From positions 2,782 to 66,781 of the forward strand of contig CAJJAX010000036.1 in assembly GCA_905182155.1 (NCBI GenBank): a stretch of DNA of 64,000 nt. Direction: 5' to 3'. The notes under the pieces are model-generated. The model was not told the DNA's origin, made no database searches, and saw only the letters and a program-made list of their open reading frames with translations. Origin of the DNA: an uncultured Pseudomonadales bacterium. GTDB taxonomy: Bacteria > Pseudomonadota > Gammaproteobacteria > Pseudomonadales > Azotimanducaceae. Each line of letters starts with the position of its first letter. The first letter of the stretch is position 1. The position numbers were made by a program, and so were the translations under genes. Shown piece after piece: positions 23,680 to 29,371 of this stretch.

Positions 23680-26174
23680 CTAGATAATTTCGGCACTGGA
23701 TAGAATTTCTTCTGGGATGAGCCCTGGACGCACTAAAGGCTCCTTTTTGGTCTTATCGCGATCGTAACGTTTCGCGGAGGTATACGTCGGCTCGCTTAAC
23801 ACCGCCGCGCCAAACGACTTCTGCCGTTGCACCTCCGGCACTACGCCGTAATTTGTTGCTCGCTGTCTGGGCAATCGTCCCGCAGATCGGATGATACCTT
23901 CCATTTCCTCGGGCGAGGTTTCCTGCCCATGCGCCGCGCCTGCGGCTCGAGTGATGGTCTCATTCATGAGCGTGCCGCCAATATCGTTCACACCCGCATT
24001 CAAACAGGCCTTAACGCCCTCATGGCCGAGCTTGGTCCAAGACGCTTGGATATTCTTAAATACCGGATTCAAGGCCAGTCGGGCAATCGCATGGATCAGG
24101 ATCGCCTCTCGAAAAGTCGGCCCCTTCCGAGCATTGCCTTTCAAGTAAATCGGCGCTTCCATATGAATGAAAGGCAAAGCACGAACTCGGTAAAACCGCC
24201 GGTTTTTTCCTGTAACGCCCGCACCCTTAATAAGTGCCTGGCAACATGCTCATACTGCTCGATATGGCCATACATAATCGTGGCCGTGGTATTAAAGCCC
24301 ACCCCATGGGCGGCCTCCATCACTTCTAGCCACTGTGCGGTATTGATTTTATCCGGGCAGAGCGTTGCCCGAACCTCATCATCAAGAATTTCCGCCGCGG
24401 TGCCCGGCAAGGTGCCCAGCCCGGCTTCTTTTAACGCAGTCAGATATTCTGGCAACCTAACGCCAAGTGTGGCTGCGCCCTGCCACACCTCCAGCGGCGA
24501 GAATGCGTGAATATGCATTTCAGGCGTCGCACTGCGAACAGTGTTGACAATATCCAGATACGTTTGACCGGTGTAGTCGGGATGAATCCCACCCTGCATG
24601 CAGACCTCGGTCGCTCCTCGATCCCAGGCCTCGCTGCAACGCCCGGCAATATCTTCACCGGTAATATCATAGGGCCTGCCGCGTAAATTTTCGCTCTGCT
24701 TGCCCTTAGAGAAGGCGCAGAACTGACATTTGAAATAACACACGTTGGTATAATTAATATTTCGATTAACACAATAGGTCACCTCATCGCCGACCAAATG
24801 CTTTCGGACCGTATCGGCCGCTTGGGAAATATGGGTTATTTCGTCCCCTCGCGCCTGAAACAACCTGACAATTTCACCCTCTGATAAAGCGTTGCCAGCA
24901 ACCGCTTTGTTCAGGATCTTCTCTAAGGTTGCTGACGCCTTAAGCTTCGGAATATGCGTGACTCGGGCCAAGTCGCCAGCCGGCGGGTTCGGCGTTTCAC
25001 CTGCCGCCCAGTCTTCACCACGAACATACCCCTCGCCGTCAATCGCGCCTAAAACCATGGGCCTGAGCTTGACATCAATCCATCGATCCATTTGCTTCAA
25101 ATGCGAAGGATAAACGGCCAGACGCTCAACCAAGATCTTGCCTTCGCGCGCTGTTTCTTCGGCTAAATTTTTAAGGTGCGGCCAAGGCGCTTCAGGGTTT
25201 ACAAAATCGGGGGTAACGGGCGAAACCCCGCCCCAATCGTTGATGCCTGAATCAATGATTCGATGGAACACGCCAGGACTTAAATTCGGCGGGGCCTGCA
25301 GGTTCATCTGACTGCCAAAAATGAGTCGCGCCTGCGCGATGGTCCAAAGCAGCTCATTCAAGTCTGGTTCGGGCGCATTGACCATCAGCGTGTCGGGTTT
25401 TGCCCGGAAGTTCTGAATGATCAATTCTTGAATATGCCCAAAAGGCTCGTTCGCGGTGCGCAGCGCCAGTAATGACTCAATACGCTCGCGACGGGTTTCG
25501 CCAATCCCAATTAAAATACCGGATGTAAACGGGACGCCCGCTTCCCCAGCCAGTCGAATGGTCTCGAGTCGCTTGGCCGGCGCTTTGTCGGGCGACCCAT
25601 AATGCGGCATGCCTTTTTCGGTCAGTCGATCGGATGCCGACTCAAGCATAATCCCCATTGATATCGATACTTTACGCAGCGCTGTAAACTCGGACGCTGT
25701 CATCAGCCCAGGATTCAAATGTGGCATCAAGCCCGTTTCTTTGAGCACCAGTTCTGCCATATCGTGGAGATAACTCAAGGTTGAGTCTTGACCCAAGGCT
25801 TTAAGCCCGTCGCGAGCCGCTTTGTATCGCGCCTCAGGTTTATCACCCAAGGTAAATAGCGCCTCTTTACAACCGGCTTTGGCGCCGTCGGCAGCAATTT
25901 TCAAGACTTCGTCTGGCGTTAAGTAAGGGGCTTTTAACTTCCGAGGGACTTGCGCAAAGGTGCAGTAATGACAAACGTCGCGACACAGATGGGTGAGCGG
26001 GATGAACACTTTTCTTGAGTAAGACATGGCGTTCGGATGGCTGAGATCCCGGACTGAACCCGCATGGCGCAGAAGCTCGTCCGTTTCGGTGTAGTCAGCA
26101 AGCACTAACGCTTCGTGGTCATCGAGGCCTTGGCCTAATGCCGCCTTCTGAAGAATCTCTGTTATGGCACTCAT
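23680..26174 (-). pseudogene. fbiC: FO synthase FbiC (fused CofG+CofH), interrupted by a 1-nt deletion near 24179
   Basis: Two radical-SAM motifs: CRDVCHYCTF (CofG half) and CYFKCQFCAF (CofH half). The upstream frame ends ...TGGFTEFVLCLSFIWKRRFT*. The next frame continues LPFIHMEAPIYLKGNARKGPTFREAIL. The DNA gtg-ct-ttg-cct-ttc looks like V-P-L-P-F with one base missing. Start set at ATG 26174, after AGGAGG. Confidence 0.85.
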
Positions 26175-26863
26175 TACAACCCACCTCCTGTGACCGACGA
26201 TAGTCTGGCGCTCACATCGATTGCCACACAATAACGATAAGTATGGGACTCCGTCCCCTGAAATGCCAGTCGATCCATAAACCGTTTTAAATCGTCCGGC
26301 GTGTCAATATCCAAACCCAAACCAGGCAGCTTTAAGACCGTTGGCTCAAGACCGACCGCTTGCGCCGCTTTGACATGCTTGCGAAAGCTATCGATTCCAA
26401 ACTGAAACGTGACGACCCCCGGCGGAGACGCCAACAGGCAATTCGTGCCACCCAGATCATCTGCGGGCACCAAGGCTAGGCCCGGGCCCTTGGGCGAGAA
26501 GCCATCGAGAATAACTTCGATTTCCTCAGGTGTAACCAAGGGCACGTCCCCCGGTAAAAATAGCATTTGATCTATGCCCGCTTGGGTTAAGGTTTGACAG
26601 GCATGTACCACTGCGGGAATGAGCCCTGGTTCGGCCGGTTCTGGCAGAATCAGAGCGCCGTAGCCCTCGGCCAACTCAATTGCAGCGGGATCATTGGTAA
26701 TCACCATGATCTCATCCACCAACGGGCAAGCTTCAACCGCAATCAAAACATCTTCCACCATCGCTTGGCAGAGCCTGCGCCGCTCCTCACTCGACAACAG
26801 GGCCGACAATCGCTGCTTGGCATTCTCAAACCCCTTAACGGGAATAATCGCGCGGGTCGTCAT
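26174..26863 (-). CDS. cofC: Guanylyltransferase CofC/FbiD (2-phospho-L-lactate or related substrate)
   Basis: 229-aa ORF with AIIPVKGFENAKQRLS and LFLPGDVPLV, typical of CofC. Its stop overlaps the fbiC ATG (TAATG). Its start overlaps the cofD stop (ATGA). Confidence 0.8.
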   Translation of the reverse strand: MTTRAIIPVKGFENAKQRLSALLSSEERRRLCQAMVEDVLIAVEACPLVDEIMVITNDPAAIELAEGYGALILPEPAEPGLIPAVVHACQTLTQAGIDQMLFLPGDVPLVTPEEIEVILDGFSPKGPGLALVPADDLGGTNCLLASPPGVVTFQFGIDSFRKHVKAAQAVGLEPTVLKLPGLGLDIDTPDDLKRFMDRLAFQGTESHTYRYCVAIDVSARLSSVTGGGL

Positions 26864-27923: not shown

Positions 27924-28703
27924 TTATCGAAACATATCCATTGTTTTAGGTCTAAGCAAAGGCTTCACGCCCCTTAACTCGGGCGCGCTGGGCGCCACAG
28001 GTTGATAACCGCGGACCAACACAACCGGCGCTTTTTCGGTTGTTTGGCCCATCACTAAGGAGGCCCCTGCCGCCAACTCATCCGCCGCCGCGACCTGGGT
28101 TACCAGCAATTCACGGCCAAAGATGTCCGTGCCGCCGACATAGTCGTCTAATGCAGTGAGGCCAGCGACCCCAATTGCCAGTCCCACCGTACCAATGCGC
28201 CAGGCGCGTCCGATCGAGTCATTTATAATGATAGCCACATCAATCCCCAACCGGTCCGCAAAACCCTGCCGCAGCGCTTCTGCCGACGCATCCGGGTCGA
28301 CCGGTAGCAGTAGACACAGGTCATCACCGGCAACGCCCGCTTGTTGAATGTTCGATTGATCAATTCCCGCATTGGCGGCAACGAAACCAAGACGGTGCTC
28401 AACGATCAGAACGCCAGGCCGTTTACGGACCACTTCATTGGACTCATCCAGTATGACCTGAACCTTTCTTGGGTCCTTGTCCACTTCTTGCGCCAGCAGC
28501 ACTGCGGCCGGGCTGGGCGTGACGTCATTGAGGTTCACATACTGATTTTCGGCTTTTGAGACGATCTTCTGAGCCAGTACTAAAACGTCCCCAGCCTGGA
28601 GGGTTTCGCCCATGCTCGCAAGCCCGCCCAGGATGATTTCAACGAGATCATCCCCCGGTTCCACCATCGGAATGTTCTCGATACCGGTCAGAGACAGTTT
28701 CAT
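27924..28703 (-). CDS. cofE: Coenzyme F420-0:L-glutamate ligase CofE (stand-alone, no nitroreductase-like FbiB C-domain)
   Basis: 259-aa ORF with VLAQKIVSKAE and ANAGIDQSN blocks typical of CofE. Its ATG overlaps the npdG stop (ATGA). Confidence 0.85.
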   Translation of the reverse strand: MKLSLTGIENIPMVEPGDDLVEIILGGLASMGETLQAGDVLVLAQKIVSKAENQYVNLNDVTPSPAAVLLAQEVDKDPRKVQVILDESNEVVRKRPGVLIVEHRLGFVAANAGIDQSNIQQAGVAGDDLCLLLPVDPDASAEALRQGFADRLGIDVAIIINDSIGRAWRIGTVGLAIGVAGLTALDDYVGGTDIFGRELLVTQVAAADELAAGASLVMGQTTEKAPVVLVRGYQPVAPSAPELRGVKPLLRPKTMDMFR

Positions 28704-29371
28704 TCTGCAGCGGGCTCACCGGTAATCACAAGCCCAGCACCATTAATTTTATGGTGTCGGTTGATCGTGATTAAAATTGAGGTGAGGGCTTCCGCCGCCG
28801 CCGCATTCTGAATTGGGCCCGCATGCCAGCCCTTCAAACCCAAAGCCTCGACTAAGGTAATGACGGTGTCTCGTGCCGCACGCTTATTACCGGTCACGAG
28901 CACATCACAGGCAATCGAATGATCTTCTTGCAGATGCATCGCGCCAACATTCTGGAACGCCGAGACCACAAAGACCTCTTCGCCAAGGTGGTCTTGGGCT
29001 TGCTGTCCAGCAGAACCGGATGCCGGCATCTGAACCGTCCCAACTTTCGGTGGCACCAGGGGCACGGTCACATCGATGAGCACTTTACCGATCAATGCGT
29101 GCTTAACGGAATCGAGCGTGCTGAGTTGGTGCGCAAAGGGCACCGTCAGCACAACCAGGTCCGCCTGCTCGGCCGCTGATGGATTATCCAACCCAGTCAC
29201 GTTCAGGTCCGAAAACTCGGCCAAGAGCGCCGCAGCGGCCTCCTGTCCTTTCTCAAGGGTTCGACTGCCGATAACGATGGTGTACCCGGCTCTCGACCAT
29301 TGCCTGGCAAGGCCACCGCCTAAATCACCGGTTCCGCCCAAAATTGCAATGGTTTTAATACTGTCACTCAT
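28700..29371 (-). CDS. npdG: NADPH-dependent F420 reductase (Fno/NpdG)
   Basis: 223-aa ORF with the Rossmann start IAILGGTGDLGGGLA. First gene of the F420 operon. Confidence 0.85.
   Translation of the reverse strand: MSDSIKTIAILGGTGDLGGGLARQWSRAGYTIVIGSRTLEKGQEAAAALLAEFSDLNVTGLDNPSAAEQADLVVLTVPFAHQLSTLDSVKHALIGKVLIDVTVPLVPPKVGTVQMPASGSAGQQAQDHLGEEVFVVSAFQNVGAMHLQEDHSIACDVLVTGNKRAARDTVITLVEALGLKGWHAGPIQNAAAAEALTSILITINRHHKINGAGLVITGEPAAE

Follow-up and report, generated by a model that had tools for sequence, protein, structure and literature searches.

Gene content of the F420 locus

Analysis of a 64,000-nucleotide stretch of DNA (hereafter the window) from an uncultured Pseudomonadales bacterium (GenBank assembly GCA_905182155.1, contig CAJJAX010000036.1, positions 2,782–66,781 of the forward strand) revealed a five-gene operon for the biosynthesis of coenzyme F420. 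All long open reading frames (ORFs) between positions 23680 and 29371 are located on the minus strand and correspond to five co-oriented genes. Gene families were assigned using NCBIfam profiles with curated cut-offs, with Pfam as a cross-check; all five genes exceed these cut-offs (fbiC after repair of its reading frame), and the Pfam results concur. The first-pass annotation, made from the sequence without database searches, had described an F420 biosynthesis cluster headed by an Fno gene, and each of its five family assignments held in the profile searches.

The first gene of the operon, npdG/fno (28700–29371), encodes a 223-aa NADPH-dependent F420 reductase (TIGR01915, 191 bits against a cut-off of 150; PF03807). 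It is followed by cofE (27924–28703; 259 aa), whose product, a single-domain F420-0:L-glutamate ligase, matches TIGR01916 (266 bits; cut-off 180.65) over profile positions 3–244 of 244. The start of cofD (26863–27837), encoding a 2-phospho-L-lactate transferase of 324 aa (TIGR01819, 279.8 bits; cut-off 257.45), was placed at the ATG at 27837; the ORF continues to a GTG at 27861, and a 324-aa protein is called in conspecific contigs. The last two genes are cofC (26174–26863), encoding a guanylyltransferase of 229 aa (TIGR03552, 164.5 bits; cut-off 105), and fbiC (23680–26174), encoding a fused CofG-CofH FO synthase (NF006687, CofGH) and broken in the window by a 1-nt deletion near position 24178. 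The two CxxxCxxC motifs attributed to this fused protein in the first-pass annotation, one for each radical-SAM domain, are visible in the FbiC translation (CRDVCHYC and CYFKCQFC).

The cofE start codon overlaps the fno stop codon (ATGA at 28700–28703), and cofC and fbiC overlap in a TAATG sequence at 26172–26176. Both of these junctions had been read correctly at first pass. A third overlap, between cofD and cofC at 26861–26865, was also confirmed, but its sequence is TGATG (1-nt overlap) and not the ATGA originally given. With the cofD start taken at ATG 27837, 86 nt lie between cofE and cofD. The operon is real and canonical, and its enzymes are already correctly annotated in public databases. 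Proteins identical to Fno, CofE and LLM2 (an oxidoreductase described below) have already been deposited under the right names in GenBank, IMG and Tara, where they originate from ‘Ca. Azotimanducaceae’ and Pseudomonadales metagenome-assembled genomes; the identical Fno is named ‘NADPH-dependent F420 reductase [Ca. Azotimanducaceae bacterium]’ in GenBank.

Four genes encoding luciferase-like (LLM) class F420-dependent oxidoreductases, overlooked at first pass, are clustered within 9 kb of the operon. Three of them are located on the minus strand: (i) LLM1 (22489–23484; 331 aa; TIGR03841, 233.5 bits, cut-off 213.65), which immediately follows fbiC in 11 loci of the OM182 lineage, (ii) LLM2 (21475–22479; 334 aa; TIGR03617, 469 bits, cut-off 278), separated from LLM1 by a 9-nt spacer containing GGAG, and (iii) LLM3 (20071–21106; TIGR03559, 366 bits when repaired, cut-off 335), which carries a 1-nt insertion at 20486. 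The fourth gene (14913–16010; 365 aa; TIGR03857, 379 bits, cut-off 218) is placed on the plus strand, 4.1 kb beyond LLM3. A fifth luciferase-like gene (36639–37541) scored under every F420-LLM cut-off.

LLM2 and LLM3 are separated by a 368-nt untranslated gap (21107–21474) with no Rfam match. Downstream of LLM3, after 18 nt, lies a FemAB-like/GNAT gene (18907–20052; PF04339, 517 bits), whose position after LLM3 is kept in all the OM182-lineage loci compared (L001–L013). Among the loci compared, the LLM1–LLM3 genes with the FemAB-like tail are confined to the OM182 lineage, and they are conserved throughout L001–L013.

Frame breaks and divergent patches in the window

As read in the window, fbiC is not the single open gene that the first-pass annotation had assumed: a frameshift splits it into 677 and 165 aa. 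The first ORF (24141–26231) terminates in an out-of-frame tail (..EFVLCLSFIWKRRFT*), while the second (23680–24177) carries the remaining 165 residues of CofH. The site was compared with L001, a relative at 82% nucleotide identity, and with L081–L083, which are conspecific metagenome contigs about 99% identical to the window. Samples with contigs at this level of identity include ERZ23495454 and ERZ23499120. This comparison identified a 1-nt deletion at about 24178 (GTGCT-TTGCC in the window, GTGATCTTGCC in L001 and L081–L083). The deletion adjoins a substitution and does not have the form of a simple homopolymer slip. Both radical-SAM domains, with their motifs, are present in the window, and conspecific contigs carry the gene intact. 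Repaired FbiC comprises 831 aa (NF006687, 1132 bits; cut-off 1018) and shares 97.1% identity with the intact conspecific protein of the same length. Contigs with the CofC allele of the window stop before the frameshift site.

In LLM3, the insertion (window GGTCTTAACC, L081 GG-CTTAACC) divides the gene into two ORFs, 20450–21106 and 20071–20463. Repaired LLM3 encodes 344 aa, and a protein of this length is encoded intact in conspecific contigs. Neither the truncated FbiC nor the truncated LLM3 product has any record in a collection of 153 billion gene positions, and intact Fno is present in 294 blocks of the searched contig collection.

Programmed frameshifting or recoding in fbiC was considered and excluded, since relatives and conspecific contigs read straight through the site and there is no X XXY YYZ slippery heptamer at GTGCTTTGCC; unrelated genes of the window are shifted as well.

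The whole window was compared with conspecific contigs retrieved by exact-protein look-ups. No net frameshifts were detected within positions 1–18999, and seven were found between 18.7 and 64 kb. Besides those in LLM3 (20486) and fbiC (24178), they affect an acyl-CoA synthetase gene (41708–41751), a short-chain dehydrogenase (SDR) gene (48832–48840), modF (50671–50721), ilvC (52380) and a further gene (62328). All of the frameshifted genes are intact in the conspecific contigs.

The same comparison revealed about ten short patches (65–376 nt) with approximately 30% mismatches amid otherwise almost 100%-identical sequence (7001–7064, 13467–13583, 19039–19402, 24457–24708, 41687–41758, 48952–49031, 50671–50730, 52259–52380 and 63121–63487). 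They are always located in conserved enzyme genes, and three of them disrupt the reading frame. The patch in fbiC (24457–24708) is nearer to fbiC of Halieaceae (83%) than to the conspecific allele (79%), and its residues are natural variants throughout. Such patches could be artefacts of assembly or of a cross-taxon consensus, or could stem from recombination that brought in short segments of distantly related DNA. In the simplest interpretation, the assembly consensus was disturbed at conserved segments, the fbiC break being one such error. Because of the several frame-breaking errors and mosaic patches, gene integrity in the window should not be taken as biology. The fbiC deletion and the LLM3 insertion are probably sequence or assembly errors; for fbiC this follows from the finding that the ilvC, modF, acyl-CoA synthetase and SDR genes also carry frameshifts or divergent patches private to the window. 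The same changes give less weight to a selective decay of the F420 system, which was also considered.

The predicted cofactor route and its known counterparts

The gene content suggests the following pathway. The fused CofG and CofH radical-SAM domains of FbiC would convert tyrosine and 5-amino-6-ribitylamino-uracil into the deazaflavin FO. CofC, with GTP, would activate a three-carbon phospho-acid, most likely 2-phospho-L-lactate and not 3-phosphoglycerate. CofD would move the activated acid onto FO, yielding F420-0, to which the single-domain CofE would attach a glutamate tail. As the product of the leading gene, which is translationally coupled to cofE, Fno would transfer hydride from NADPH to F420, and the nearby or downstream LLM-class oxidoreductases may then use F420H2 (or F420). 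We infer that the genes form a single transcript, that Fno acts in this direction, that the three-carbon unit is the one named above and that the cofactor is produced.

CofE aligns only with positions 13–243 of the 449-position FbiB-type model NF009810, and therefore has no nitroreductase domain. The Pfam lists covering genes across the window contain no nitroreductase family, so that neither an FbiB-type C-terminal nitroreductase fusion nor a linked stand-alone homologue was found at the locus or in the window. Since CofE is single-domain and no nitroreductase gene is listed in the window, the mycobacterial dehydro-F420 reduction step is not encoded here.

The closest solved structure to CofC is 7P97 (E 1e-23), a 3-phosphoglycerate guanylyltransferase; the protein is also homologous to 6BWG and 2I5E. 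Mutagenesis has shown that Ser162 of the 3-phosphoglycerate enzyme is crucial for the use of this substrate, whereas His145 and Met91/Cys95 shape the pocket (PMC8764529). CofC of the window lacks this signature: it has Gly at the positions of both Ser162 and His145, Leu81/Ile82 at Met91 and Val at Cys95. Other tested proteobacterial CofCs prefer 2-phospholactate (PMC8764529). Because CofE is single-domain and CofC has Gly replacing the Ser of 3-phosphoglycerate enzymes, the product is predicted, on sequence grounds, to be classical F420, made via a 2-phospholactate-type route and kept reduced by Fno.

Fno is a full-length homologue of the solved Fno enzymes 5N2I (residues 7–217, E 1e-36) and 1JAX/1JAY (residues 8–211 on 1JAX, E 8e-28), and it retains the GGTGDLG and GSR motifs. 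Fno is a recognised F420-reducing enzyme (PMC8498797). By the reasoning of the same 2021 review F420 is a secondary cofactor in bacteria, and for this reason Fno is expected to work toward F420 reduction. The first-pass proposal that Fno may hold F420 in its reduced form to supply downstream reductases is reasonable, and is in line with this view (PMC8498797).

That Gram-negative bacteria can carry F420 genes has long been recognised. Production of F420 has been shown in the Gram-negative genera Paracoccus and Oligotropha (PMC8498797) and in Paraburkholderia/Mycetohabitans, and Pseudomonas and Halomonas are among the producers predicted in a survey of 2024. The clusters of Paracoccus denitrificans and Oligotropha carboxidovorans, as far as they are described through the citation of Ney et al. 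2017 in PMC8498797, comprise the same cofC, cofD, single-domain cofE and fused fbiC in a Gram-negative aerobe. They differ in that their hosts are soil alphaproteobacteria, whereas the host here belongs to the marine gammaproteobacterial clade OM182. Moreover, in the window fno is placed first and coupled to cofE, four LLM genes are clustered nearby, and production is predicted from the genes.

The cluster of Mycetohabitans (Paraburkholderia) rhizoxinica, which directs synthesis of 3-phosphoglycerate-derived F420 (3PG-F420), is also Gram-negative and confined to a single locus, and its CofC is the 7P97 protein mentioned above. However, the Ser162/His145 signature is missing in the window, and Fno and the LLM enzymes are absent from that organism.

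The mycobacterial FbiABCD pathway shares the fused FbiC, the FbiD/CofC guanylyltransferase and the FbiA/CofD transferase, and the LLM families identified here are named for the mycobacterial genes Rv3093c, Rv3520c, MSMEG_2256 and MSMEG_2249. In contrast to the mycobacterial system, CofE lacks the C-terminal nitroreductase domain of FbiB, the genes are contiguous and not scattered, and Fno is present in the window, in which no Fgd-type glucose-6-phosphate dehydrogenase was seen. The archaeal CofC/CofD/CofE/CofG/CofH set resembles the locus in its single-domain CofE and predicted 2-phospholactate-type linker route, with no dehydro-F420 reduction. The locus departs from it in the fusion of CofG with CofH, in its aerobic bacterial host and in the direction of Fno, which by the reasoning of the review (PMC8498797) is expected to act toward F420 reduction.

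Host, flanking regions and origin of the operon

The closest genomes to the window belong to ‘Ca. Azotimanducaceae’ (OM182 clade, order Pseudomonadales), in agreement with the gammaproteobacterial host proposed at first pass. A scan for FbiC, with one genome per species, confirmed more than 592 loci. The best 80 come mostly from marine members of the gammaproteobacterial order Pseudomonadales (OM182/‘Ca. Azotimanducaceae’, Halieaceae, Spongiibacteraceae, Litorivivens, Zhongshania and Pseudohongiella), with a few from Chloroflexota or Alphaproteobacteria. Upstream sequence is sufficient at 66 loci; 48 of these, mostly in marine Pseudomonadales, have the exact order fno-cofE-cofD-cofC-fbiC, and eight more have a partial version. 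Isolates that carry the operon include Litorivivens lipolytica CECT 8654 and Zhongshania antarctica DSM 25701 (loci L022 and L062). The first-pass view of the cluster as a sporadic occurrence in Proteobacteria is not supported and is out of date.

Conspecific contigs are almost 100% identical to the window over most of the operon, and synteny with L001 extends through both flanks, except around a receptor gene upstream of fno. Comparison of nucleotide composition with 30 other genes of the window, a check that the first-pass annotation had proposed, gave no signal of recent acquisition: the F420 genes (GC 0.53–0.56; GC at third codon positions, GC3, 0.57–0.60) match the background (0.539±0.022 and 0.589±0.033, respectively), and their codon usage lies inside the range of these 30 genes. 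In a rough neighbour-joining tree, which had no outgroup and no support values, the window falls inside the OM182 clade and Chloroflexota are nested among the proteobacterial sequences. This topology, which is suggestive only, is compatible with an old inter-phylum transfer and not with a recent one. The operon is vertically maintained.

The promoter of the operon is presumed to lie in the 525-nt untranslated gap upstream of fno (29372–29896, minus strand), and a ribosome-binding site, AGGAAAG, is placed 6 nt ahead of the fno ATG. A terminator scan gave no excess of sites over shuffled sequence, with the exception of one strong terminator-like hairpin (29919–29896; 10-bp stem and T-run) after a TonB-type receptor gene. 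Just past this hairpin, the gap contains two copies of a short direct repeat (GAGCTTTTTGTCT). A riboswitch or leader RNA upstream of fno was considered and rejected: no Rfam match was obtained anywhere in the window, and no upstream block is conserved among OM182-lineage loci.

The TonB-type outer-membrane receptor gene (29935–33084) is a compositional outlier (GC3 0.483, compared to 0.589±0.033 in other genes). A different allele (1070 aa) is present in the conspecific contig L082, and the relative L001 has different content at this site; the gene is a variable spot at the upstream edge of the operon.

Among the flanking housekeeping genes named at first pass, class II ilvC (490 aa in intact copies) and the modF-like and ygiQ-like genes lie within the window, but no murC-like gene appears in its Pfam lists. 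Regions 1–20000 and 38000–60000 are rich in genes of acyl-CoA and lipid metabolism (two acyl-CoA synthetases, two acyl-CoA dehydrogenases, a thiolase, an enoyl-CoA hydratase, SDRs, two thioesterases and a CoA-transferase), a neighbourhood that may be a clue to the kind of substrate on which the clustered LLM enzymes act.

We consider the locus to be the chromosomal F420 module of an abundant marine bacterium from the gammaproteobacterial OM182 clade (‘Ca. Azotimanducaceae’), in which the fbiC and LLM3 indels are most likely errors (probability of about 0.8). Several points weigh against this interpretation. The sequence as it stands truncates FO synthase within CofH, and this copy would make no FO. 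A promoter consensus scan yielded no excess of sites over shuffled sequence, and no promoter was identified. The 2021 review of F420 never mentions Gammaproteobacteria and reports just trace F420 in two Alphaproteobacteria (PMC8498797). No experiment demonstrating F420 in any member of the lineage was found in the literature; a search for reports that link F420 to OM182, Halieaceae, Colwellia or marine gammaproteobacteria returned nothing relevant, and none of the top-ranked papers retrieved on these marine clades mentions the cofactor. Finally, since in vitro assays of CofC do not separate 2-phospholactate from phosphoenolpyruvate (PMC8764529), a stand-alone dehydro-F420 reductase may be encoded at a distance, elsewhere in the genome.

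It is improbable that the frameshifts are real and that the strain has lost FO synthase and one LLM enzyme, leaving an F420 system that is decaying or fed by external FO. That both isolated indels within 18.7–39.4 kb hit F420-related genes would fit such a loss, as would the form of the fbiC lesion, a deletion beside a substitution. However, at least five more window-private frame-breaking changes affect unrelated genes, including ilvC and modF. The resulting density, about one broken gene per 6–7 kb, is implausible in a free-living bacterium that shares about 99% identity with population contigs in which the genes are intact. Elsewhere the operon matches intact copies at 100% identity and shows no further damage, and the absence of the truncated products from the collection searched points in the same direction.

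Even less probable is that the cluster makes a variant cofactor. This could be 3PG-F420, the form known from Mycetohabitans, or dehydro-F420, with its reduction left to an unlinked nitroreductase as in Thermomicrobium. In favour of a variant, 7P97, the solved structure closest to CofC, is a 3-phosphoglycerate enzyme, 2-phospholactate and phosphoenolpyruvate are not separated in CofC assays, CofD also contributes to selection (PMC8764529), and the literature describes the bacterial source of 2-phospholactate as unknown. The Gly residues in place of Ser162 and His145 and the Leu/Ile in place of Met91 argue against the first variant, the lack of a nitroreductase domain in CofE and of any listed nitroreductase gene in the 64 kb argues against the second, and the 2-phospholactate preference of other tested proteobacterial CofCs favours the classical product. 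The least credible alternative, and a very improbable one, is a recently acquired island from Actinobacteria, Chloroflexota or archaea. Gram-negative bacteria are described in the literature as having acquired F420 genes by transfer, and FbiC of Chloroflexota, nested among proteobacterial sequences in the rough tree, is as similar to that of the window (62–64%) as FbiC of other gammaproteobacterial families. On the other hand, GC, GC3 and codon usage are at background level, gene order and flanks are shared with relatives as distant as 82% nucleotide identity and throughout the OM182 lineage, and no mobile-element genes adjoin the operon; any transfer must have been ancient.

Taken as an F420 module of the OM182 clade, the locus is an unstudied member of known F420 clusters and not a new system, and it is widespread in related marine bacteria. 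By itself it adds nothing new to F420 biochemistry, and its value is modest and ecological. Compact, Gram-negative in origin and with a single-domain CofE, the operon could serve conveniently as a cassette for making F420 in heterologous hosts. Of wider interest is that abundant marine gammaproteobacteria appear to carry the fno-led operon and clustered LLM enzymes broadly, an occurrence that seems to have gone undiscussed. We suggest tentatively, and with somewhat more doubt than confidence, that F420 may be a vertically inherited core cofactor of several abundant marine oligotrophic clades (OM182, OM60/NOR5 Halieaceae and Spongiibacteraceae). In this view a conserved operon headed by fno would direct its synthesis by an archaeal-like route without dehydro-F420 reductase, and the cofactor would feed lineage-specific LLM sets in the turnover of lipids or dissolved organic matter; the searched literature on F420 and on marine gammaproteobacteria contains no mention of such a role. 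If the cofactor is indeed made, a low-potential hydride carrier and a group of unstudied LLM enzymes would take part in the metabolism of heterotrophs that are common in coastal and ocean waters.

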